This document shows, one piece after another, positions 15,418 through 25,583 of a stretch of 57,491 bases of DNA. Location: assembly GCA_003139775.1 (NCBI GenBank), contig PLGI01000075.1, positions 1-57,491 of the forward strand, written 5' to 3'. A model generated the notes under the pieces. It had not been told where the DNA came from and made no database searches. It was given only the letters and a program-made list of their open reading frames with translations. The position numbers were made by a program, and so were the translations under genes. The first letter of the stretch is position 1. Every line of letters begins with the position of its first letter. This DNA is from Syntrophaceae bacterium (GTDB lineage: Bacteria; Desulfobacterota; Syntrophia; Syntrophales; Smithellaceae).

Positions 15418-16434
15418 TTATCTAGGCATATCGTCAGGAATATAAAAAAGATCAGTTCCGGAAACCATCTCAATTTTATCTTCCATAAATTTCTTCATAG
15501 CTATAACATCATATAACGTTAATAAGCGTTCTTTATGGCTCTGATATTCTTTTTCTTGTACCTGTATAAAAATTTTTACTAAAGTAGGATGCATAGCGTT
15601 AATGATCATTTGATCTGTTTCACGGTTAAAATATGGCAATGAATATCCAATAATTACTAATGTTGTTGTTCCTTGGAGTTCTTGTTTAACTTTATCTTCA
15701 ATGTCTTTTTTTTCCCATGCAAAAGAAATATTAGGTTGATAGCCTACAACTTCTCCTTCTATGGTTGTAAAGTTTTTAAATAGTTTAATGACCTCTTCCA
15801 AAAAGGGAATGTTGAAATCACAATGGCCCAAAAATCTCGTATTATCTTTCTCTGGTAAAGCACAAGTTCCATTTAATCTAATAATATTTTTATTTAGTGT
15901 CAGTCCCGTATAAACAAGAGATGAATCCGTACAAAATCCCTCATATGATTTTTCCAGTTGTGTATCATAATTCCATGTTATTATATTAATTCCATCGGGC
16001 AATAATGGTATGCCATTTGAATTGCTGGATAAAATGGACGCAAAAAAATTGTCATATCTTCTGTCTGCCGGCTTAAATGATTGTTCTAGTAGAAAATAGC
16101 AGGAAAGAGTGGCTTTAAGTTTCTTCAATTCCTTTATCGCTTCATTATTGTCTTTTTTAATAAATAGTTTTTTAGCATATGTATCAATAGAAGCGTGTAT
16201 ATCTACTTTTTCTTTAAGCCAATTAATATATTTTATGAGGTCTTCTGCATATTTACCCCTCGGATGTAATAAATACTCTGTAGATGCTAAATTTTTGTTT
16301 TCAATATGAAGACGAATATCTATGTTTTCTTGAAGCCTATCTTTGAAGTCTGCTAACTTTTCAGGAAAACCTTTTACCATAGGAAGATATTCACAACTTG
16401 CTCCAGCCCCTAACAGGTAAGTAATTTTACTCAT
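15418..16434 (-). CDS. SIR2-like (SIR2_2-type) domain protein, possible anti-phage NADase
   Basis: YLLGAGAS, IITWNYD, IRLNG, LVIIGYSLP motifs; markedly AT-rich relative to its neighbours. Confidence 0.7.
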   Translation of the reverse strand: MSKITYLLGAGASCEYLPMVKGFPEKLADFKDRLQENIDIRLHIENKNLASTEYLLHPRGKYAEDLIKYINWLKEKVDIHASIDTYAKKLFIKKDNNEAIKELKKLKATLSCYFLLEQSFKPADRRYDNFFASILSSNSNGIPLLPDGINIITWNYDTQLEKSYEGFCTDSSLVYTGLTLNKNIIRLNGTCALPEKDNTRFLGHCDFNIPFLEEVIKLFKNFTTIEGEVVGYQPNISFAWEKKDIEDKVKQELQGTTTLVIIGYSLPYFNRETDQMIINAMHPTLVKIFIQVQEKEYQSHKERLLTLYDVIAMKKFMEDKIEMVSGTDLFYIPDDMPR

Positions 16435-16556
16435 GCGCCTATCTCAACAAAAATTATTTTTTTGGTTTCTTTTCGTATTTTTAATAAAATTAGGGCCAAT
16501 TCTTGAAATATCAGTTTTCTTTTCCTCAATTGTATTTGTGTTTTCACTATTACTGG

Positions 16557-16576
16557 ATTCCCGCCTACGCGGGAAT
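16557..16576. repeat. REP-like palindrome ATTCCC-N8-GGGAAT (dRS3-like)
   Basis: GGATTCCCGCCTACGCGGGAATGAC; degenerate relatives near 4417 and 28331. Confidence 0.6.
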
Positions 16577-16588
16577 GACAACTTTTAG

Positions 16589-16710
16589 GGGCTGTTCAAA
16601 AATGCTTAGATGCAAGGCGCGCGAGTATCGCGGAGTGAGGCCTACTTTTTCGTAGGTCGCAGCGACGCGAACGGAACGCAACACAGCAGATAGGCATTTT
16701 TCAACAGCCC
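16589..16710. mobile_element. 122-bp MITE-like element, family 1, copy B (inverted relative to copy A)
   Basis: GGGCTGTTCAAAAA...TTTTTCAACAGCCC terminal inverted repeats. Confidence 0.8.
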
Positions 16711-16711
16711 G

Positions 16712-18112
16712 CTACTCCCGCTCAAAAGTAATGCCGTACTTTTCCAGCTTCCGTTCGAAGGTCGGCCGGGAAATTCCCAGTGTCTCACAAATTTCCCCTT
16801 TGTTTTTATCCGTCTCTTTGATAACTTTGCGAATGTATCGTTCTTCCACTTCATCCAGAGTTAAAAATTTGCCCGGCTCCGGCGATTTAAATAAATCATC
16901 AGACGTATCGCCCGGCAATTTAGAAGCATCTTCTTTATCCAATTCCGGAAAATCACTAACTCCCAAAACCTGCCCTTTGGCCACAACACAGGCGCGCACA
17001 AGCAGATTTTCCAGTTCCCGGATATTGCCCGGCCAATTATAATTCATGAAAATTTCCATCATTTCGTCGGAAACACCGATGACCTTTTTGTGCAGATCCA
17101 AATTAATTTTTGCCAGCAGGTAGTCTATCAACGACGGAATATCCTGGCGGCGTGTGCGCAGCGGCGGTAAGTTAATGGCTACAATATTCAGACGATAATA
17201 CAAATCATCGCGAAATTTTCCTTCATTAACCAAAGTCTTTAAATCTTTGTTTGTCGCGGCCATAATCCGGGCGTTAACCTTGACCTTATCTTTCCCCCCC
17301 ACTCTGTCGAATTCCATTTCCTGCAAAACTCGCAAAAGTTTCGCCTGCAGGTTTACGGACATTTCGCTGATTTCATCCAGAAAGACTGTGCCGAAACGCG
17401 CCAATTCAAACTTGCCCAGTTTTCGTGCGATAGCGCCGGTGAAAGATCCCTTTTCATGACCGAATAATTCCGATTCCAGCAGGGTTTCGACAATGGCCGA
17501 ACAGTTGACTGCGATAAAAGGTTCGTCGGGTGACGTATTATGATGAATGACTTTAGCAATCAACTCTTTGCCCGTGCCGCTCTCTCCTTGAATCAAAACG
17601 GTGGTGCGGCTCTGAGAAACAGTCCCGATAGTTTTAAAAATTTCCCGCATTTCATTACCGGTGCCGATTATATCTCCCACCCGGAAACTCCTTGACGGTT
17701 CCATCAAAAGTCCGTCAATCTTTTTTTCCATTTCCAGAGATTTCAAGGCTTTCTTAATAGCCAGATCCAGTTCATCGACATTGACCGGTTTATGAATATA
17801 ATCAAAAGCGCCGCTTTTCATGGCTTTGATGGTTGTCTCCATGTCATGAAAAGCGGTGATCATGATGACCTTGATGTTTTCATTTTCTTCTTTGAGATCT
17901 TCCAGTACCGAGAACCCATCAATGTCAGGCAAACGGATATCCAGAATGACGACATCAGATTGTTCCTGAACATACTTATTCAAACCTTCCGTGCCGGTCA
18001 GGGCTGTGCGAACTTTGTAACCTTCCTCAGTTAAATACAGATCCAGTGTTTCCACAATCGAAGCATCATCATCAATAACAAGAATACTCGGCATAACCTT
18101 AACCTTCGCCAT
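16712..18112 (-). CDS. sigma54-dependent response regulator (NtrC/AtoC family)
   Basis: Receiver domain (ILDIRLPD), GESGTGKE, ESELFGHEKGSFTGA, WPGNIRELEN, C-terminal Fis-type HTH. Confidence 0.93.
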   Translation of the reverse strand: MAKVKVMPSILVIDDDASIVETLDLYLTEEGYKVRTALTGTEGLNKYVQEQSDVVILDIRLPDIDGFSVLEDLKEENENIKVIMITAFHDMETTIKAMKSGAFDYIHKPVNVDELDLAIKKALKSLEMEKKIDGLLMEPSRSFRVGDIIGTGNEMREIFKTIGTVSQSRTTVLIQGESGTGKELIAKVIHHNTSPDEPFIAVNCSAIVETLLESELFGHEKGSFTGAIARKLGKFELARFGTVFLDEISEMSVNLQAKLLRVLQEMEFDRVGGKDKVKVNARIMAATNKDLKTLVNEGKFRDDLYYRLNIVAINLPPLRTRRQDIPSLIDYLLAKINLDLHKKVIGVSDEMMEIFMNYNWPGNIRELENLLVRACVVAKGQVLGVSDFPELDKEDASKLPGDTSDDLFKSPEPGKFLTLDEVEERYIRKVIKETDKNKGEICETLGISRPTFERKLEKYGITFERE

Positions 18113-18155
18113 TCAACGGGTTTCTCAAACTTCATGATCCGTTTTTATAATTTTA

Positions 18156-20759
18156 TTAATCTCTTGAAATATGACGCCTTTCATTACTAGACAATGTAAC
18201 ACAAACTTTCGTTCCTTTGTACTTTTCACTGATAATTTCTATTTTACCTTGATGGAGGTCAACTATTTTTTTTACCAGGGAAAGGCCTAAACCAGTACCA
18301 TAGTTTTTCCGCGTAAAGAAAGGATTAAATATATGCGGCATGTCTTCCTTATCAATGCCGCTGCCATTATCTCTAATCTCCACGACCACTGCCTGACGAG
18401 TTTCATCAAAATAGCGCAACGAAACCATAACTTTGCCATGTTCCTCCACTGCTTCCACAGCATTACGGATAACATTTAAAAAAGCGTCAGCCATCATTGC
18501 CGCGTCAACTGCTATGGGAGGAATACTGCCAAAATTTGTTTGCATTTCAATTTGTTTATCGGCAATTCCTTTTTCAGCCATAGCTATAGCCTGCTCCAGC
18601 ACTTTGGCCAAATCCACAGGATTTTTTTGGGGTTCTACCGGTTTGGCAAAAGCTAAAACATTATTGACCAGCACTTCCAAATGGTCTACTTCTTTTTCAG
18701 CAATCCTGAATCTCTTCAAATCGTTTCCTTCAGGATTCATGCGTTTTGCCAATATTTGCAAACTCATTTTAATCGACGAAAGAGGATTGCGTACTTCATG
18801 AGCTATACCAGCCGATAACTGCCCCAAAGCCGACAACTTTTGACTTTCGTAAAGCTTTTTTTCCAGATTCTTGAATTCCGTAATATCGCGTTGAACCAGT
18901 ATGTAATGATTGGTTCCTGTAACAGGAGAGGTGGTAATCAGAAGATTATGTTTGCGGCCATCCTTGCTCGTTGCTTCAATTTCATAAGGGTCATAGACAC
19001 CTTTTTTCGCAGCTTCCCATTTGGACAAGACGAATTCCTCATAGCCGGGCGCGACAAAATCCAAAAAGTATTTCCCTTTGAACTCACGGTAATGAACTCC
19101 TCCTCCCTTTCTTAAACCGAGGCTCATATAGTTGATGATGCCGTTTTCATCCATCTCATAAATTTTATCCGGCAAACTATTTATTATCGACTGCAAATAG
19201 TTGTATAGGTCTTCAATCTGCCGCCGCAGCTCAATATTCTCAACCAATTCATTTTGCAATGTTTCGGCATACTCGTTTAAACTTTTAGTCATTTCCCGCT
19301 CTCGCGAAACATCCTGCAGTGTTTCAATTGCGGCAATAATTTTACCTTCTTCATCGTAGATGGGAGAAGCCAGGAAATACATGGACCGGCTTTGTCCTCC
19401 AATGTTCTCAAAATAATCCGTTGCTTCGTAGGCACCGATCACTTTATCAGATTTTTTAACCTTTTTGCCGCCATAGTACTTACTCAGGCCATCTATATCA
19501 TTATCGACGATTAAATCGGCTATCATGGGCCTCCTGACGGAATAAAAAGGGATATAATGCCTGTCTGTGCCAACCATATCTTCAGTCGAATAACCGGTAA
19601 GCTCCATACAGGCTCGATTCCACAGTATGACTTTATGTTCATTGTTGATGACAAAGCTGGGAATTGGCGAACCTTCAATAATACCGTCGATAGTTTTTTT
19701 CTCTTGCAGCAGTTTTTCCTGCCAGTCCTCCCGCTCTTTCAATCTTTTATTTTCTTCTTTGATGCGCAGTCTTTTACCCTCTTTATAAGCAAAAGACATA
19801 CCGACAATTATAACCACCCCAATGAGCAATAATGAACTGAAAAGCGTATAAACAAATGTTTTACGAACAGGTGAAACTACTTGACTGTATGGAGCAACAA
19901 CTAAAAGGATCCATTTTTTATCTCCAGCATGGACCGGATAATAAGCAATAATACTTCGTTGTTTTCTTTTATCAACCTGAAGAATGGATGCGTCTAAATG
20001 CCCTTTGCTTTCGGAAGGAAAATTAATTTTTGATTTATCCAGATTTTGAATTAGATCACTAATATTTTTTCCTATAAAAGAAGAATCATGATGAAGAATT
20101 ATTTGCCCCTTCTCGTCAACGATCCACAATTCACCCAGTTGATTATCACGTATTTGTTTTTCACAAACATCTACTAAAGCGGCAAGTGAAAAAGAAACCA
20201 CCCAGGCGCCGGAGAAAACATTGTTTTGACGCCAGATGGGATATCCCCAAATTAAATACCAATCAGCTTTTTGTGTTATTTTATCTTTGGATTGTTTTTC
20301 CGATAAAGCCAAACTCACATATTGCTTATTTTGCTGTTTTAGATCTTTAAAATGTTTGGTCAGATTTACCTGAGGTATGGCGCCATGCGGTAAAATTATC
20401 TTGATTTTTCCATCTACATCAAAAAGCAAGACAGCGTTAATCGAGTTTTCCCAGCCGGAATAGAAAATTTTTATTTCCTGATCACTTTCTCCAGTTAGAA
20501 TTTTACCCTGAGGATCAAAATGAGAAAACAAAGCGATGCTTTTCCCAACCTGATCGAATATGTCTGTCATTCGAGTAGCTGCATTTTGAGCAGAGGCAAG
20601 CTGCTGACGGCTGAACAAATCAACCATATCCCTTTCCCTGGCGTTGTTCACTGTCAAAGCTAAAAGTAGAATCAGGATGATCACCGTTATACTGGCTAAC
20701 CAGATGCGTGCTTTTATAGCCTTATGGTAGAGTTTCTTAATTTTACTGAATAAAGTCAC
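18156..20759 (-). CDS. Membrane sensor histidine kinase (Cache-like periplasmic domain, two PAS domains)
   Basis: Two TM segments, PAS motifs, H-box AHEVRNPL, N-box, DNGSG, FNPFFT, GTGLGL. Confidence 0.92.
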   Translation of the reverse strand: MTLFSKIKKLYHKAIKARIWLASITVIILILLLALTVNNARERDMVDLFSRQQLASAQNAATRMTDIFDQVGKSIALFSHFDPQGKILTGESDQEIKIFYSGWENSINAVLLFDVDGKIKIILPHGAIPQVNLTKHFKDLKQQNKQYVSLALSEKQSKDKITQKADWYLIWGYPIWRQNNVFSGAWVVSFSLAALVDVCEKQIRDNQLGELWIVDEKGQIILHHDSSFIGKNISDLIQNLDKSKINFPSESKGHLDASILQVDKRKQRSIIAYYPVHAGDKKWILLVVAPYSQVVSPVRKTFVYTLFSSLLLIGVVIIVGMSFAYKEGKRLRIKEENKRLKEREDWQEKLLQEKKTIDGIIEGSPIPSFVINNEHKVILWNRACMELTGYSTEDMVGTDRHYIPFYSVRRPMIADLIVDNDIDGLSKYYGGKKVKKSDKVIGAYEATDYFENIGGQSRSMYFLASPIYDEEGKIIAAIETLQDVSREREMTKSLNEYAETLQNELVENIELRRQIEDLYNYLQSIINSLPDKIYEMDENGIINYMSLGLRKGGGVHYREFKGKYFLDFVAPGYEEFVLSKWEAAKKGVYDPYEIEATSKDGRKHNLLITTSPVTGTNHYILVQRDITEFKNLEKKLYESQKLSALGQLSAGIAHEVRNPLSSIKMSLQILAKRMNPEGNDLKRFRIAEKEVDHLEVLVNNVLAFAKPVEPQKNPVDLAKVLEQAIAMAEKGIADKQIEMQTNFGSIPPIAVDAAMMADAFLNVIRNAVEAVEEHGKVMVSLRYFDETRQAVVVEIRDNGSGIDKEDMPHIFNPFFTRKNYGTGLGLSLVKKIVDLHQGKIEIISEKYKGTKVCVTLSSNERRHISRD

Positions 20760-20945
20760 CTAATCTTCGTTGTCCTTTTTATTTTCTTTTTTGGAGAGCT
20801 TAATCCCGATTAAGACATAAACCAGGATTGCCGCTGTCAGTGAAATAAGAAGTTTGGCCAAACCACTTTCAATTTTTAAAACATAAGAACAAACAAGCCA
20901 TCCGAGGGGGTAAGTAACTGCCGTTAAAAGTTCCTGCATTATCAT
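20760..20945 (-). CDS. Small two-TM membrane protein, first gene of the two-component operon
   Basis: 61 aa hydrophobic ORF with RBS AAGGA; its stop abuts the kinase start. Confidence 0.6.
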   Translation of the reverse strand: MIMQELLTAVTYPLGWLVCSYVLKIESGLAKLLISLTAAILVYVLIGIKLSKKENKKDNED

Positions 20946-21030
20946 CCTTTAAAAATACTTCTCGTGGTATTTTATTTTAACAAAACCGATTTTTGTAATA
21001 CTAACGGCCTTAGCGGAAAATTTCAATAGA

Positions 21031-21258
21031 AATTATCCCCGAAGCGAAGCGAAGTGGGATTAATGAGACTCGCTGAAAATGAGACCCAAGCTTCAGAAGC
21101 AAAGTGCACAGAAGCTTGCTGGACGTAATGAGACAAAAATTTCACAAGAGTAGTGTAGTGAAATTTGCAAGTCGAATTATCCAATAGTCTTTAGCTATTG
21201 GAAATTATACCAGGCGCTTAGCGCCGTGGTAAAACGAACGAAGTGAAGTTTGAAGCAT
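21031..21258. repeat. Mosaic REP/MITE-like intergenic element, family 2
   Basis: Modules shared with 45254-45404 (reverse complement) and 23418-23465. Confidence 0.7.
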
Positions 21259-21507
21259 TGTTTTGAAGCTCATACGCATAATTTGAATGTTTTATAGTAA
21301 ACCATTTAACAAAACATTAAATCCGGCTTCAAATTTTCATGCTCTTCAAGTTTGTGAAAAAAACTTGCGGATGTTTTTTCCCATGAAATATTTTTATTTT
21401 TATTGTATTATTAAATGAAGCAATCTCAACAAATTAGGCAGGTATCTTTTCCATAACCGCGTTCTTCAAATGAAATATTTTGAAATAATTTTTTCATATT
21501 AAAGCCA

Positions 21508-21523
21508 TGGCATAAGTCATGCA
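21508..21523 (+). promoter_or_regulatory. sigma54 (-24/-12) promoter upstream of the stand-alone atpE
   Basis: TGGCATAAGTCATGCA has exact GG-N10-GC spacing; a sigma54 activator is encoded divergently. Confidence 0.65.
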
Positions 21524-21627
21524 CCTAAGTTCGCATAGAATAAATTATTTCTCTTTCACATGGCTATCAATTTATGTTATGGAAACAGGAGGTAATAATA
21601 AACAACTATTATGAAAGGAGACAAACA

Positions 21628-22005
21628 ATGTCACACAAATTTGGTAAAAAAATTTTAACAGCATTTACATCCGTAGCAGTTCTACTCTTGGCAAGTCCGC
21701 TTGTTTTTGCCGCAGAAGCTATTCCGGCAGGTGGCGAATCCTACATTAAAGTATACTTTGCTATGGCCGCAATGATCGGTGCAGGCTTGGCTATTGGTTT
21801 AGGAGCAATCGGAGCCGGTGCTGGTATTGGTAACGCGGCAAACGGCGCATGTCAGGCAGTTGGAAGAAACCCCGGTGTACAGGGAAAGATCATGATGGTT
21901 ATGCTCGTCGGTATGGCCATGGCTGAATCCATCGCAATTTATGCGTTGGTCATTTCTCTGATTCTTCTCTATGCTAACCCTTACATGCGTTATTTTTTGG
22001 GTTAA
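21628..22005 (+). CDS. atpE: F-type ATP synthase subunit c with N-terminal signal-like extension
   Basis: GAGLAIGLGAIGAGAGIG Gly motif, RNP loop, AESIAIYALV ion-binding helix; RBS AAGGAG before ATG at 21628. Confidence 0.92.
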   Translation: MSHKFGKKILTAFTSVAVLLLASPLVFAAEAIPAGGESYIKVYFAMAAMIGAGLAIGLGAIGAGAGIGNAANGACQAVGRNPGVQGKIMMVMLVGMAMAESIAIYALVISLILLYANPYMRYFLG

Positions 22006-22055
22006 TACTAAAATAAGTTAACTACAAAATTAACAAAGGTTAGGGGGAAATAGTA

Positions 22056-23363
22056 ATGTCAGAAACTAAAAAAAATAAGCGGTTTATTAATATAGGAGGC
22101 GTGTTCTTCCTGCTTATTGTAATTCCCTTATCACTGATGGCGTTTTTAATCGCTAACGGCATGTTTAAATTGGGGGTTACTATAAAAGAGAGCACCCTTA
22201 ACGTTCTCGATAATAAATCTCAGGAAGATATACGAGCAAGGGCCGTCAATGCAGCAAACGAAGTTGCCAATTTCCTCATGGAAAGCAATAAAGATTTACA
22301 AGTCGCAACAATCATTCCCTCAACAGAATCTGTATACAAACAGTTTATTTCTGAAAATAAAAAACCTGTCTGGGTCAAACGTAACGGTAAAATACAGCAG
22401 ATATTGATCCCGCTATACAAAGAAATGGCTCTGATTGATAAAAACGGCAACGAACAAATTAAAGTCGTTGACGGTCAGGTACTACCGGCGAAAAAACTGG
22501 TTAATGTCAGCAATCCGGCCAATACAACATATAAAACTGAAGATTATTTTGCGAAGACAAAAAATCTGAATAAAGGCGACGTTTATGTTTCCCCGGTAAC
22601 AGGGTTCTATGTCAATAAGGCAGCGTTTGAAAAGGGACAAAGATTTGAAGGCGTCGTCCGTTTTGCGACACCGGTATTCAATAAAGATGGTTTCGCGGGT
22701 ATAATTACATTGGCCTTGGATTATCGTCATCTGGCCGAGTTTACCCATCATCTTGTTCCTACGCAGGCGGAAAAGGTATTTGAAACAACGGCTGCTTCCG
22801 GTAATTACGCCTATATGGTTGACAATCGCGGTTTTGTCATTTCCCATCCTAGTGATTTTCATATTGTTGGACTCACCCCTGACGGAACAATTGTTCCAAC
22901 TCTTTCGGCTCAGAACGCAGCAGAACTGGCAAAGAATGGCACAGAAGCGTTGAATATGTTCCAGTTGGGTTTTCTGGATCCCAATATATTTAAAATCACG
23001 AAAGAAGCTGCACAAGGGAAATCAGGAATTTTAATGTATAAATATGGTGGAATCAACAAGTTCGTCACCTATGCGCCGATCAAGTTTTATGCGTCAAACC
23101 TTCCCCAACCTACCGGTTTTGGCTGGATAGGACTGGGACTGGAAGTTGAGAAATATAACGAAGCGGCAACGAAGTTATCTCAGAAAATTGAAAAGGAATC
23201 AAAAGCATGGACTGCGACAGTCATCTTTATTCTTATCGCTTCCATGATTATTCTGTTCTTCATTATGCTGCTTTTGGTTCGTGGAATCAGCCGTTCATTG
23301 CAGGCGGAAATCCCAAGAGGTTCAGAAGGCCTATCATTCGACGATGATGACGATGATAAATAA
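22056..23363 (+). CDS. Two-TM protein with a large Cache-like extracytoplasmic domain and no cytoplasmic output domain
   Basis: N- and C-terminal TM segments; Cache-like motifs DYF..VYVSPV, VRFATPVF..GIITLALD, YAYMVDNRGFVISHP; short acidic tail. Confidence 0.75.
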   Translation: MSETKKNKRFINIGGVFFLLIVIPLSLMAFLIANGMFKLGVTIKESTLNVLDNKSQEDIRARAVNAANEVANFLMESNKDLQVATIIPSTESVYKQFISENKKPVWVKRNGKIQQILIPLYKEMALIDKNGNEQIKVVDGQVLPAKKLVNVSNPANTTYKTEDYFAKTKNLNKGDVYVSPVTGFYVNKAAFEKGQRFEGVVRFATPVFNKDGFAGIITLALDYRHLAEFTHHLVPTQAEKVFETTAASGNYAYMVDNRGFVISHPSDFHIVGLTPDGTIVPTLSAQNAAELAKNGTEALNMFQLGFLDPNIFKITKEAAQGKSGILMYKYGGINKFVTYAPIKFYASNLPQPTGFGWIGLGLEVEKYNEAATKLSQKIEKESKAWTATVIFILIASMIILFFIMLLLVRGISRSLQAEIPRGSEGLSFDDDDDDK

Positions 23364-23388
23364 TTAAACTTAATTTAATCAATTAACC

Positions 23389-23418
23389 AAAAGGCCGAAT
23401 TTCGATTCGGCCTTTTTT
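23389..23418 (+). terminator. Intrinsic terminator ending the atpE-Cache transcript
   Basis: AAAAGGCCGAAT-loop-ATTCGGCCTTTTTT. Confidence 0.8.
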
Positions 23419-23465
23419 AATGAGACTCGCTGAAAACGAACGAAGTGAAGTTTGAAGCGTTAGTC
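23418..23465. repeat. Family 2 repeat module
   Basis: TAATGAGACTCGCTGAAAA joined to ACGAACGAAGTGAAGTTTGAAGC; both pieces also occur at 21061 and 21233. Confidence 0.65.
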
Positions 23466-23717
23466 GACTCCCGCCAACGTAGTTGGCAGGGATGCGGATG
23501 ACTCATCGTGCTAAGCTAAGTGGGACTACGAAGCGTATTGATAATATCACGCCGTTTGCTTTGGGTTTCAAACCCATGATTTCTATTATTATCCTTTAAA
23601 AATAGAATGGACTTTAATCAAATACAATATATAATAATGTACATACTTATTCACACGTAAACTACAAAGGGTTGTTTTCTATTAATTTTATTTTTATAAA
23701 AAGAAAAGGAGACCAGA

Positions 23718-23912
23718 ATGAACTATATTCCGCATCTGTTCGCGTTAGTTACAGGTGGTATTCTTCTTTGGATAATAAAAAGAAAATATGAGAAAATACA
23801 AAACCGCGAATTGATCATAATATTCATCCTCTTTGTTCTATTAGTTGCCATCTTTACAGCTCCCGGGATGGACATGATAAAAAGATTTATAAATTTTATC
23901 CAAGTAGAGTAA
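23718..23912 (+). CDS. Small two-TM membrane protein
   Basis: 64 aa, two hydrophobic stretches, RBS AAAGGAG. Confidence 0.65.
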   Translation: MNYIPHLFALVTGGILLWIIKRKYEKIQNRELIIIFILFVLLVAIFTAPGMDMIKRFINFIQVE

Positions 23913-23987
23913 ATGACGCCTGTATAATAGCTAGCCAGGTAGAAAAAGTTTGTTAAACGCGTTTTCATGTTCATATTTTGATGTGGC

Positions 23988-24251
23988 TTGAGTGAAATGA
24001 AGGGTTACCAGATAGGAAAAAAACCAAAGGCAGACCCTGAGCAGTTCCGCAAGTTCAGCGGTATTTTTATGTTATCGGCTTGGGGAATCGCGATGGTGGC
24101 GTCCTCGTTCCTATTCCTTTATATCGGTTACCTTGTGGATGAAATTCTGGGAACCACACCTAATTTCATGCTGTGTTCTTTCTTTCTCGCAATCGGTCTC
24201 TGCATGTGGAGGCTTTATAAGGAGGCAAAGGAAAAAAGTAAGAAGATGTAA
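23988..24251 (+). CDS. AtpZ/AtpI-like (ATPase gene 1 family) membrane protein
   Basis: GIAMV..FLYIGYLVDEILGTTP..L..FLAIG pattern resembles the ATPase_gene1 family; start codon uncertain. Confidence 0.65.
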   Translation: MSEMKGYQIGKKPKADPEQFRKFSGIFMLSAWGIAMVASSFLFLYIGYLVDEILGTTPNFMLCSFFLAIGLCMWRLYKEAKEKSKKM

Positions 24252-24410: not shown

Positions 24411-25067
24411 TTATTTAATGCTACCAGGAAGAAATTTAATCTGTGAATGCGGTTCAATTTGCAGATATGTTGGCGTTCCCAAAAATTCAGGTCTGTCCTC
24501 TATCGTATTGACCTCAACCCGGTATATCCCCGGTTTGAGATCGATAGCTATTATTTCTCTAAGATGATATCCAAAAGCACCGGCATATGTTCCGTGGGTC
24601 AAAATTGTATCTTCATAGATTAATTTAGGCAGTAAGCTTCCAGTATCCGGCTTGCTGATTTTTAGGTGGATTGGAATATTTATGCCTTTGTGCTTCATCG
24701 TTGACATATCAACATCAACCAGCGCAAGAACACGGTCACCATCAGCCTCAATACGCTCTTGACTACCTTTAGTAACAAACTCAAAGCGAAGGGCAAAGTA
24801 ATAAGAACGATACTCACGAATCCTAATCTCCTGATCGACTGTACTATTCTGTTTGCTCACATCAAACGGCCATTTAACAACCGGTATTGGGAGTGTTGTT
24901 GACGGTGATGTTGATGAAAACCACGAAAATGCTTCACAGACTGTCATACAGATAAAAATAATCAAAAAACTGCTATCAATATTTTTAATATTTTCATTAT
25001 TATTTTTCTCCTCCTTTATTGCGCCTGATTTTTTCAGTGCAAATTTTTTATCACTGTCATTTTTCAC
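24411..25067 (-). CDS. Hypothetical exported protein (DUF5625-like)
   Basis: One TM segment, then PFDVSK..Y.F.L.F..IPIHLKI..R.I..IDLKPG.YRVEV pattern; family call from recall only. Confidence 0.5.
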   Translation of the reverse strand: MKNDSDKKFALKKSGAIKEEKNNNENIKNIDSSFLIIFICMTVCEAFSWFSSTSPSTTLPIPVVKWPFDVSKQNSTVDQEIRIREYRSYYFALRFEFVTKGSQERIEADGDRVLALVDVDMSTMKHKGINIPIHLKISKPDTGSLLPKLIYEDTILTHGTYAGAFGYHLREIIAIDLKPGIYRVEVNTIEDRPEFLGTPTYLQIEPHSQIKFLPGSIK

Positions 25068-25198: not shown

Positions 25199-25210
25199 TA
25201 AACAGGCGCT

Positions 25211-25583
25211 GGAGAAGATCATAAGCCGAGTCCTGTCCCGCGTTTCAGTTACCCTACGTGCGGTGATGATCCTTCATCTGGGACAGCAGTTACCTGCAGT
25301 CTCAAGCGACACTACCCGAGAACATCAGGCGGGCCGCCCTTAAACGTTCTCCTATTTGGTCTTGCTCCGGATGGGGTTTACCATGCCTTTCCTGTCGCCA
25401 GGAAAGCGGTGAGCTCTTACCTCGCCTTTTCACCCTTACTCAAGGCTTTCGCCCTGGGCGGTATGTTTTCTGTGGCACTTTCCTTAGGGTCGCCCCCAGT
25501 CGCCGTTAGCGACCATCCTGCCCTGTGGAGCTCGGACTTTCCTCCGGCAGATAAATTCTGCCGACGATCATCTGATCTTCTCC
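25211..25583 (-). ncRNA. rnpB: RNase P RNA (class A)
   Basis: Minus strand contains GAGGAAAGTCCG, AGTGCCACAGAAA, GGTAAACCCC..GAGCAAG and ACAGGACTCGGCTTAT; complementary GGAGAAGATC ends form P1. Confidence 0.95.

Follow-up and report, generated by a model that had tools for sequence, protein, structure and literature searches.

A stand-alone ATP synthase c-subunit gene paired with an output-less dCache protein gene beside a sigma-54 two-component system in Syntrophales

The window analysed here, a contig of 57,491 nucleotides (PLGI01000075.1) from a Smithella-type syntrophic Syntrophaceae bacterium, carries a gene for an F-type ATP synthase c-subunit followed by a gene for a membrane protein with a dCache sensor fold but no signalling output. 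We propose, with a probability that we put at roughly one half, that these genes form a two-gene operon run by the neighbouring two-component system, and that they encode a regulated accessory isoform of the rotor subunit together with a ligand-binding partner. Every feature named in the initial annotation was found where stated, and the features concerned are as follows.

16712..18112, minus strand: NtrC/AtoC-type sigma-54 activator response regulator (Pfam REC, AAA+ and HTH_8)
18156..20759, minus strand: sensor histidine kinase (Pfam periplasmic dCache_1, two PAS, HisKA and HATPase_c)
20760..20945, minus strand: 61-aa two-helix membrane protein (small61), first gene of the kinase operon, an ORF abutting the kinase start
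21281..21322, no strand assigned: candidate activator binding site of inverted ATTTnAATGTTTT half-sites, ~200-225 nt ahead of the -24/-12 element
21508..21523, plus strand: sigma-54-type -24/-12 element TGGCATaagtcATGCA, GG and GC correctly spaced
21628..22005, plus strand: accessory F-type ATP synthase c-subunit, 125 aa (over the cut-offs of PF00137 and TIGR01260)
22056..23363, plus strand: membrane protein of TM-dCache-TM layout with no output and an acidic tail at its C-terminus (structural model, Foldseek and Pfam)
23389..23419 (about), plus strand: intrinsic-terminator-like hairpin with a T-run at the end of the two-gene unit (fold -17.2 kcal/mol, z = -4.8)
23718..23912, plus strand: small ORF for a 64-aa two-helix membrane protein, loosely associated
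23988..24251, plus strand: small membrane protein of the AtpZ/AtpQ family (PF09527), one of three paralogues in the genome (36.3 bits, cut-off 26.6)

RESULTS

An accessory c-subunit gene apart from the atp genes

The c-subunit of the window scored 67 bits against PF00137 (cut-off 24) and 45.3 bits against TIGR01260 (cut-off 43.95), and none of the narrower NCBIfam equivalog models reached its cut-off. Its start was assigned to the ATG at 21628, 8 nt downstream of an AGGAG, and an ATG at 21574 was rejected. The N-terminus resembles a signal peptide (…LVFA/AEA), which is probably cleaved from the pre-protein, and stands ahead of a two-helix hairpin with the polar R-N/Q-P loop (here RNP) and the helix-2 carboxylate E100; R80, N81, P82 and E100 were invariant in 35 sequences. 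The protein was aligned residue by residue with the solved c-rings 4bem, 2wie, 3zk1 and 1yce, the c1 chain of 4bem being the best solved-structure match (E = 3e-26). As a signal-peptide-like extension is found on all F-type c genes examined in the order, it is no distinguishing mark of the accessory copy. Phylogenetic analysis placed the window c in a separate clade (support 100/100), and bit scores against it were at least 154 for the Cache-linked c genes and at most 108 for all others. The accessory c is 66-95% identical across the order, a conservation about equal to that of the Cache gene.

The initial annotation had described an intact atpE with no atpB/F/H/A/G/D/C in the window, and this description holds, since every match to atpB and to the alpha and beta subunits lies on other contigs and no ATP synthase core was found in the window. 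Nevertheless, this is not the only atpE of a split atp operon, because the genome holds three c genes (and three PF09527 genes): a copy in an N-ATPase operon, a solo copy on contig C46, 6 kb from atpZ-atpI-atpB on the opposite strand, and the window copy. The search for a second atpE therefore succeeded in part, i.e. extra c genes are present, but none of the three follows the F-type atpB, and the same was true in five of the five complete genomes examined. The housekeeping-type c gene is apart from atpB in most genomes examined and a stand-alone atpE is common in this order. Like the accessory c, the solo c genes of the order have no neighbouring Fo genes, so that separation from atpB is no argument against function of the accessory c, which may join the F1Fo synthase. 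Five genomes without the Cache protein had only c genes from outside the clade.

The idea of an alternative c-ring module that retunes the synthase, put forward at the outset, has fared unevenly. A signal-controlled extra c-subunit is well supported by the three c genes and by the conserved synteny and -24/-12 element described below, but for retuning, comparison of the two isoform sequences gave no sign that they differ in ring size or in the ion site; helix 2 reads E-S…Y in both, and the helix-1 position aligned with the Q/E ligand of sodium-binding rings is variable inside each c clade.

The Cache protein and its pairing with the c-subunit

The second protein of the pair consists of two transmembrane helices flanking a dCache fold. 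It scored 42.4 bits against Pfam dCache_1, slightly below the cut-off of 45, and its predicted structure (pLDDT 83.3) shows a long stalk helix that carries a double PAS-like fold; the best Foldseek matches were dCache sensor domains (3lid, 2p7j, 6iop and others; E = 3.6e-11, probability 1.00). No HAMP or kinase part was found in the protein. Residues 16-419 are 31-35% identical to dCache-HAMP kinases, which are followed by sigma-54 regulators, and these kinase-fused homologues adjoin TRAP DctPQM (L088) or a DASS symporter (L086). The sensor halves of DctB-like kinases are thus homologues of the orphan Cache protein, whose ligand is possibly a carboxylate. It was not assigned to the DctB-type C4-dicarboxylate sensors, as it lacks the kinase part; only the homologues of 31-35% identity are fused to one.

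The Cache protein is encoded in 139 of the 201 genomes of the order (E < 1e-90), and the module is widespread in Syntrophales. When three paralogous pairs are counted, the c gene lies 46-68 nt upstream of the Cache gene in 121 of 125 loci, the remaining four being the kinase-fused homologues; this spacing was seen in all orthologous loci with room, and no locus examined had kept the Cache gene of a pair without its c gene. The pair in G007 is frameshifted in both genes, which may reflect joint decay or a long-read assembly error. A second, paralogous c-Cache pair, which is new here, was found in a sister order beside rnfABC or nfnAB-like genes, with no two-component system adjoining; a canonical atpB-atpE operon is present in these genomes as well. 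Since c-Cache pairs come in two paralogous forms, of which one adjoins rnf genes, the pairing is old.

Such a history would be compatible with the two proteins, which may contact each other, making up a membrane complex of their own outside ATP synthase, for example one in which the dCache protein, on binding its ligand, gates the c-ring's ion conduction or its occupancy, or a sensor complex with the ring as the sensed or the sensing partner. The narrow occurrence of the orphan Cache form (1.84 billion representatives yielded just two clusters, of 438 and 434 aa) would fit such a complex, as would the conservation of its first transmembrane helix, the most conserved segment of the protein (mean column identity 0.86 versus 0.73 overall), and of the acidic tail, which is kept in all orthologues. 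However, the nearest relatives of the Cache-paired c genes are the solo c genes, which in one-c families necessarily serve an F-type synthase, and the accessory c retains every hallmark of a working rotor subunit; we consider a separate complex unlikely.

The divergent two-component system

A Cache/PAS kinase and a sigma-54 activator had been predicted to be encoded divergently from the c gene, and both the Pfam domains and the positions bear this out. The activator combines REC, Sigma54_activat (221 bits) and HTH_8, and its translation contains a GSFTGA loop. AtoC was its best NCBIfam match, below the cut-off, as were NtrC and ZraR, so we regard it as an NtrC-family member that is none of those named. 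It is 73-94% identical in other families, where it adjoins the kinase, and the place of the kinase opposite the c-Cache pair is conserved. The small61 protein has no match in Pfam or NCBIfam. Nearly every locus encodes it immediately ahead of the kinase, at 50-90% identity. The whole arrangement, in which the pair diverges from small61, the dCache/PAS kinase and the NtrC-type activator, is conserved.

There are regulons that include a modulator of the sensor controlling them, and the Cache protein could accordingly do no more than give feedback to the neighbouring kinase or sense alongside it, with the c gene a largely redundant copy sharing its transcript. It is, after all, a kinase sensor half without the transmitter, its homologues are true kinases, and its gene is a target of the very system that would be modulated. 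Yet no similarity could be detected between the kinase's own sensor domain and the orphan Cache protein (E = 1.2), the second pair of the sister order has no two-component system at its side, and the conservation and constant retention of the c gene are hard to square with redundancy. We therefore judge this account improbable and retain that of a regulated accessory rotor subunit.

Promoter, transcript and downstream genes

The -24/-12 element TGGCATaagtcATGCA has its GG and GC ten bases apart and the form TGGCAT-N5-ATGCA; the correct spacing noted for it initially was confirmed and its position proved to be conserved among relatives. Of 36 genomes searched with a strict motif, TGGCAY-N5-NTGCW, 33 had a match 112-138 nt ahead of the start codon of the c gene, and so did 68 of the 72 named loci that offered room. 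Both of the two sister-order pairs had it, versus none of eight other c genes (0/5 solo and 0/3 second-pair). Module and element are thus kept across families and into a second order. As the motif shows no genome-wide enrichment (54 matches versus ~48 expected), the evidence lies in the conserved position of the element. The genome has rpoN. The inverted pair of the ATTTnAATGTTTT half-site occurs once in the genome, an exact AWTGTTTT-N17-AAAACAWT pair stands at an equal distance in 30 of 64 upstream regions, and the activator probably binds there. Taken together, these features suggest that the c-Cache operon is sigma-54 dependent.

Peat metatranscriptome data show that c and Cache are transcribed as one piece of ~1.8 kb. 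The X5 RNA contig (1836 nt, depth 160) covers 21565-23400 with no differences, with zero cover over the kinase and regulator, and the X2 and X1 contigs cover 21564-23291 (depth 111) and 21717-23392 (depth 43), whereas the depth of the genes flanking the pair is 0-17. Eighteen RNA runs from peat and permafrost held good representation of transcripts from the pair, and the operon may be on most of the time in these habitats rather than rarely induced. At the 3' end, contigs stop at 23392 and 23400 and depth drops beyond the hairpin, which was missing from the list of a simple terminator scan. The predicted order of atpE, Cache membrane protein and terminator is upheld.

The 5' edges of the RNA, at 21564 and 21565 with an adapter at 21569 (three of four runs), lie ~30 nt past the expected start at ~21534, so that use of sigma-54 is not proven; they come from metatranscriptome contigs, which cannot show transcript starts or expression levels, and possibly reflect processing or another promoter. 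That the operon is not sigma-54 dependent, with another promoter near 21564 and another role for the TGGCA…TGCA element, seems very unlikely to us, for although it would account for these edges and for the three of 36 genomes in which the strict motif is absent (one of them without a near-variant too), a promoter scan listed no sigma-70-like site on the plus strand between 21412 and 21600, the element holds sigma-54 spacing and position in two orders but does not precede other c genes, the neighbour that is conserved is a sigma-54 activator, and contigs are a poor guide to 5' ends.

The small membrane ORF and the AtpZ/AtpI-like gene listed in the initial annotation are both present, but the latter is doubtful as a member of the c-Cache unit. 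It sits past the terminator with low RNA depth, is not at the head of an atp operon, and has orthologues (at least 72% identity) that adjoin the Cache gene only in the closest families (f1 and G022); other PF09527 paralogues are scattered and often multi-copy. Its tie to the module is loose. The 64-aa protein, for which Pfam and NCBIfam gave no family match, accompanies the AtpZ-like gene in Smithellaceae and also, though at a different position, in G007 and G243.

DISCUSSION

According to the accessory-rotor model, a signal would lead the kinase, through its periplasmic dCache and two cytoplasmic PAS domains, to phosphorylate the NtrC-type activator, which would bind upstream, probably at the inverted ATTTnAATGTTTT pair, and open sigma-54 RNA polymerase at TGGCAT-N5-ATGCA. 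A single mRNA of ~1.85 kb would then give the accessory c-subunit and a DctB-like sensor module without a transmitter. The c pre-protein would be inserted into the membrane by its signal peptide, processed, and taken into the rotor ring of an F1Fo enzyme, either as a separate ring or mixed with the solo c, the receiving enzyme being that of the atpZ-atpI-atpB cluster, which has no c gene of its own. The co-made sensor module would bind a periplasmic ligand, possibly a carboxylate, and act on the ring or on the kinase. A bolder version, which we hold to be quite improbable, is that the output-less dCache protein is a dedicated c-ring partner that senses a metabolite in the periplasm and works directly on the rotor, whether as brake, gate or assembly switch; if true, syntrophs would couple their ion-to-ATP machinery to an external signal while bypassing gene expression.

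Several known systems share parts of this arrangement. The F1Fo enzyme of Acetobacterium woodii (PDB 4bem) reportedly has several c-subunit genes that contribute to one mixed ring and that are said to lie inside the atp operon and to be made together. In both organisms a single F-type enzyme is, or could be, supplied by two or more c-type genes, but the window c is a lone gene elsewhere that has a dedicated regulator, carries a signal peptide and is accompanied by a sensor-like protein. The c-subunits of Aquifex aeolicus are likewise said to have a cleavable N-terminal signal peptide, and the window c resembles them in its N-terminal hydrophobic extension, which ends in an Ala-X-Ala-like site ahead of the hairpin. 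As in DctB/DctD-dctA, a dCache kinase and an NtrC-type activator are found with their target alongside behind a -24/-12 element, and the fused homologues of the Cache protein occur with sigma-54 regulators near TRAP DctPQM or DASS transporters. Unlike in that system, the target here is no transporter but a c-subunit together with a sensor half that lacks HAMP and kinase domains, and the sensor of the window kinase comes from a different dCache lineage than the orphan Cache protein. DcuS, a sensor kinase that uses DctA or DcuB as a membrane co-sensor, offers a possible model for a periplasmic sensor domain working with a membrane protein of other function, although DcuS-type sensors keep their kinase and have a transporter as partner, whereas this Cache sensor is without any output. 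The idea of a c-ring acting outside the assembled synthase has a precedent in the free c-ring as a leak channel in mitochondria (PMC9433415); that channel is eukaryotic, debated and not known to have a dedicated partner gene, unlike the module of the window.

A literature search found no description of the c-Cache module, and the ATP-synthase passages of the Smithella genome papers examined do not mention it. Syntrophic degraders of propionate and alkanes live near the thermodynamic limit, where the number of ions per ATP is decisive. For such organisms, regulating a rotor subunit separately would offer a simple means of changing or controlling ATP synthase, and a ligand-binding partner without known output would, if so, be a new kind of ATP synthase accessory. 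As many Syntrophales have the module and peat metatranscriptomes represent its RNA well, it is open to study in enrichments and in existing data. Our results suggest that it represents an undescribed way of adjusting or controlling the ATP motor.

Gene content of the locus

By Pfam searches and inspection of the sequence, all of the features described for 16712–24251 in the initial annotation were found in place.

Features of the 16712–24251 stretch (strand in brackets)
16712–18112 (−): NtrC-type activator with REC, sigma-54 AAA+ and HTH_8 domains (Pfam)
18156–20759 (−): histidine kinase, dCache-PAS-HisKA-HATPase (Pfam)
20760–20945 (−): small61, a 61-aa membrane ORF abutting the start of the kinase gene
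21508–21523 (+): TGGCATaagtcATGCA, a −24/−12-type element upstream of the c gene
start at 21628 (+): c-subunit gene, PF00137 with 67 bits, TIGR01260 narrowly above cut-off
22056–23363 (+): Cache protein, 435 aa, Cache domain between two transmembrane helices
approximately 23389–23419 (+): strong hairpin followed by a T-run (fold computed)
23718–23912 (+): small64, a 64-aa membrane ORF
23988–24251 (+): AtpZ/AtpQ gene, PF09527

The ATG at 21628, preceded by AGGAG, is the start codon of the c gene, whose product has 125 aa and a signal peptide-like N-terminus. The parts of this locus are of known kinds, i.e. an F-type c-subunit, an NtrC-type system and a dCache sensor.

Several further elements were observed around these genes. 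Within a stretch of low GC content (0.37), the activator gene is separated from engB by a 338-aa ORF (15418–16434, −) that matches SIR2_2 faintly (E = 0.004); in most of the other genomes examined engB is found at most about 150 nt past the activator gene, and the ORF resembles a small inserted segment that may be defence-related. A DUF5625 protein with an N-terminal membrane anchor (24411–25067, −; 71.6 bits) is encoded between the AtpZ-like gene and an RNase P RNA gene. In addition, an REP- or MITE-like element of approximately 45 nt (TTAATGAGACTCGCTGAAAA…GAAGTGAAGTTTGAAGC) is present as a whole copy at 23417–23461, past the operon terminator, and split in two upstream of the operon (21046–21259), with approximately 150 nt separating the halves; in one run, RNA contigs and DNA contigs are joined in alternative ways at these sites.

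A second c-subunit copy of a separate type

The assembly (3.4 Mb in 206 contigs, the window being contig C108) contains three c genes and as many PF09527 genes. Besides the window's copy, one c gene lies on C174 inside an N-ATPase-type operon (beta, PF09527, a, c, alpha), and a solo c gene with a signal peptide (345–722, −; 125 aa) lies on C46, 6 kb from atpZ-atpI-atpB and on the opposite strand, with no c gene after that atpB. The F1 genes are on C5, i.e. off the window contig. The window's copy is thus not the only atpE of the genome, and none of the three c genes directly follows an F-type atpB. Nor was a c gene adjacent to the F-type atpB in any of five genomes examined from the order that are complete or nearly so, and of five genomes lacking Cache only G011 has atpB and atpE side by side. 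As atpB and c are dispersed in most of the genomes examined, a stand-alone atpE is ordinary for this order; dispersed Fo genes are also described in the ATP-synthase passage of one Smithella genome paper. The description of the window's atpE as standing alone was correct in that no atp core genes lie in the window, although such isolation from atpB is usual across the order, and the feature of interest is the second c copy rather than its lone position.

Scored against the window's c, Cache-linked c genes all reached 154 bits or more and no other c gene exceeded 108 bits. In a tree of 44 hairpins, built on only 88 columns with most forks open and a long N-ATPase branch, the Cache-linked c genes formed one clade with a support of 100/100. 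Beside this clade lay an unresolved grade made up of the Syntrophales solo c genes and the c genes of a second pair from a sister lineage, with the atpB-linked c genes apart from both. Five genomes without the Cache protein contained only c genes from outside the clade, and the families without it mostly gave a single c match. The solo type thus serves as the housekeeping rotor subunit, with the window's c as an accessory copy. The c sequence gave no reading of ion specificity or ring size, the candidate helix-1 ligand position varying within clades.

Conservation of the c–Cache pair

The Cache protein was found with E below 1e-90 in 139 of the 201 sampled genomes of the order, or in 149 if weak matches are included; no match was found in the sampled genomes of families f12 and f24, and matches were few or weak in f7, f15, f18 and f21. 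A c gene lies 46–68 nt upstream of every orthologous Cache gene with room upstream, and the pairing held at 121 of 125 loci, three paralogous pairs included, the four misses being kinase-fused homologues; these counts are of loci and not genomes, several genomes being represented twice and some named records possibly duplicating other loci. Across the order, identity was 66–95% for c and 50–90% for the Cache protein. In most families small61, the kinase, the activator and usually engB are found next to the pair on the opposite strand; in f2 (two loci, L047 and L049) the kinase and activator genes are not adjacent to it.

At one locus (L046; G007:C1, 8650–10340), in a single-contig genome, both genes of the pair are disrupted, the clade c gene by a single frameshift in the signal peptide and the Cache gene by two; a solo-type c gene lies on the opposite strand at a distance of approximately 400 nt. 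The pair may have decayed jointly, or the assembly may contain indel errors.

Candidate promoter and transcription

In 33 of 36 genomes the strict motif TGGCAY-N5-NTGCW was found 112–138 nt before the c start codon; it was also present in 68 of the 72 named loci with room and in both sister-order pairs, so the −24/−12 element noted in the window is indeed conserved, even into another order. Two of the three genomes without it have one-base variants, and it was absent before other c genes (0/5 solo and 0/3 second-pair). As the motif is not enriched genome-wide (54 matches versus about 48 expected), the evidence lies in its position and specificity. An rpoN gene is present in the genome. Two ATTTnAATGTTTT half-sites in inverted orientation (21281–21322) form the sole such pair in the genome. 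In 30 of 64 upstream regions, most of them from Smithellaceae, the pair recurs at an equal distance, and we propose it as a candidate activator site. The fold of the leader RNA was unremarkable (z = −2.3), and no Rfam match was found there.

Parts of the stretch were present in 18 RNA runs, all from peat except one from permafrost, and we compared four of these metatranscriptomes with the window.

RNA contigs over the c–Cache pair
X5: 21565–23400, 1836 nt without differences, depth 160
X2: 21564–23291, preceded by adapter, depth 111
X1: 21717–23392, depth 43
X6: same range covered by tiling, loose adapter end at 21569

Depth in the four runs was 0–17 for the kinase, regulator, small64 and AtpZ-like genes, and X5 had zero cover across 16500–21315, uncovered parts being read as a contrast inside one run only and not as silence. 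The two-gene contigs, flanked by low or zero depth, indicate that c and Cache lie on one piece of RNA ending at the hairpin, and carried-over DNA is not the source of the signal over the pair. At their 5′ ends the contigs begin approximately 30 nt downstream of the start predicted from the −12 GC; as contig edges cannot fix transcript starts, nor contigs give expression levels, the use of sigma-54 is unproven. A depth of up to about 119000 at 25229–25500 is due to the class A RNase P RNA encoded there (25207–25583, −; full-length match with 324.8 bits), which lies close upstream of rpmH-rnpA-yidD-yidC.

The AtpZ-like gene had been proposed as part of the module. We do not count it as part of the c–Cache unit, because it lies 3′ of the terminator, its RNA depth is low, and orthologues at least 72% identical stand beside Cache only in the closest families (f1 and the genome G022). 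More distant paralogues are scattered, often as identical multiple copies, and the gene is only loosely associated with the module. The synteny suggested earlier thus holds in most families for regulator, kinase, c and Cache, but not for the AtpZ-like gene. Four genomes (G190, G076, G057 and G135) contain PF09527-like genes, 51–59% identical to the window's AtpZ-like protein, in two to six identical-score copies at distant places, which suggests that these ride on a repeated element.

The Cache protein as a sensor half

In the model of the Cache protein (pLDDT 83.3) a first transmembrane helix and a long stalk lead into two PAS-like domains, and a second transmembrane helix precedes a disordered acidic tail; the protein's best Foldseek matches are the dCache sensor domains of kinases and chemoreceptors. 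In sequence it is not similar to the sensor domain of the kinase encoded next to it, and a PDB profile search with the Cache alignment gave no match. Outside the order, among 401 sampled genomes of the phylum, residues 16–419 matched the N-terminal halves of proteins of 830–1150 aa with 30–36% identity. The three fused homologues examined were all dCache-HAMP-HisKA-HATPase kinases followed by a sigma-54 regulator, and their neighbours were TRAP DctPQM, a DASS symporter and a GGDEF protein, one each. By this homology the orphan is the sensor half of a DctB-like protein, ending at the point where a HAMP domain would start; the neighbours of the fused kinases allow the guess that its ligand is a carboxylate. 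The full-length orphan form was represented by only two clusters (438 and 434 aa) among 1.84 billion representatives, the next matches being mostly longer. Complex prediction with the full Cache protein and mature c, each with an alignment, gave scores of 0.01 and 0.00 in runs without controls, which have no bearing either way.

In one Syntrophales genome a 49% identical Cache module is fused to a PAS-GAF-PAS-kinase of 1143 aa (L080; G166:C69, 3249–8198), and the fusion gene lies directly 3′ of a gene for an Mrp/NuoL-type antiporter subunit.

A second c–Cache pair in a sister family

Our literature search found no description of a c isoform under its own sigma-54 two-component control, nor of a fixed pairing of a c-subunit with an output-less sensor module. 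The ATP-synthase passages of two Smithella genome papers mention neither feature; their supplementary tables may list the genes.

The same module is present in f67, a family of another order of the phylum, with a clade c, a Cache protein 50–53% identical, small61, kinase and regulator, and in G243 small64 and an AtpZ-like gene follow the regulator. These f67 genomes also have a canonical atpB-atpE operon. Tandem c hairpins were observed here too: atpB is followed by very long ORFs (326–494 aa) of four to seven PF00137 hairpins each, i.e. fused multi-hairpin c-subunits, after which a single-hairpin c gene comes (G512:C47:245246–246956; G243:C41:118968–120165; G581:C137:1875–3583).

In addition, f67 has a second pair, in which a solo-type c gene with a signal peptide is followed after approximately 200 nt by a Cache paralogue of 431–434 aa (38–39% identical), flanked by genes for an MshEN/T2SSE ATPase and by rnfA-B-C… or nfnAB-like genes. 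This second pair indicates that the pairing of a c-subunit with a sensor-like protein is older than the two-component link and independent of it. The function of the c–Cache module is inferred, and the second pair is the strongest hint that the c-subunit and the Cache protein may work together.
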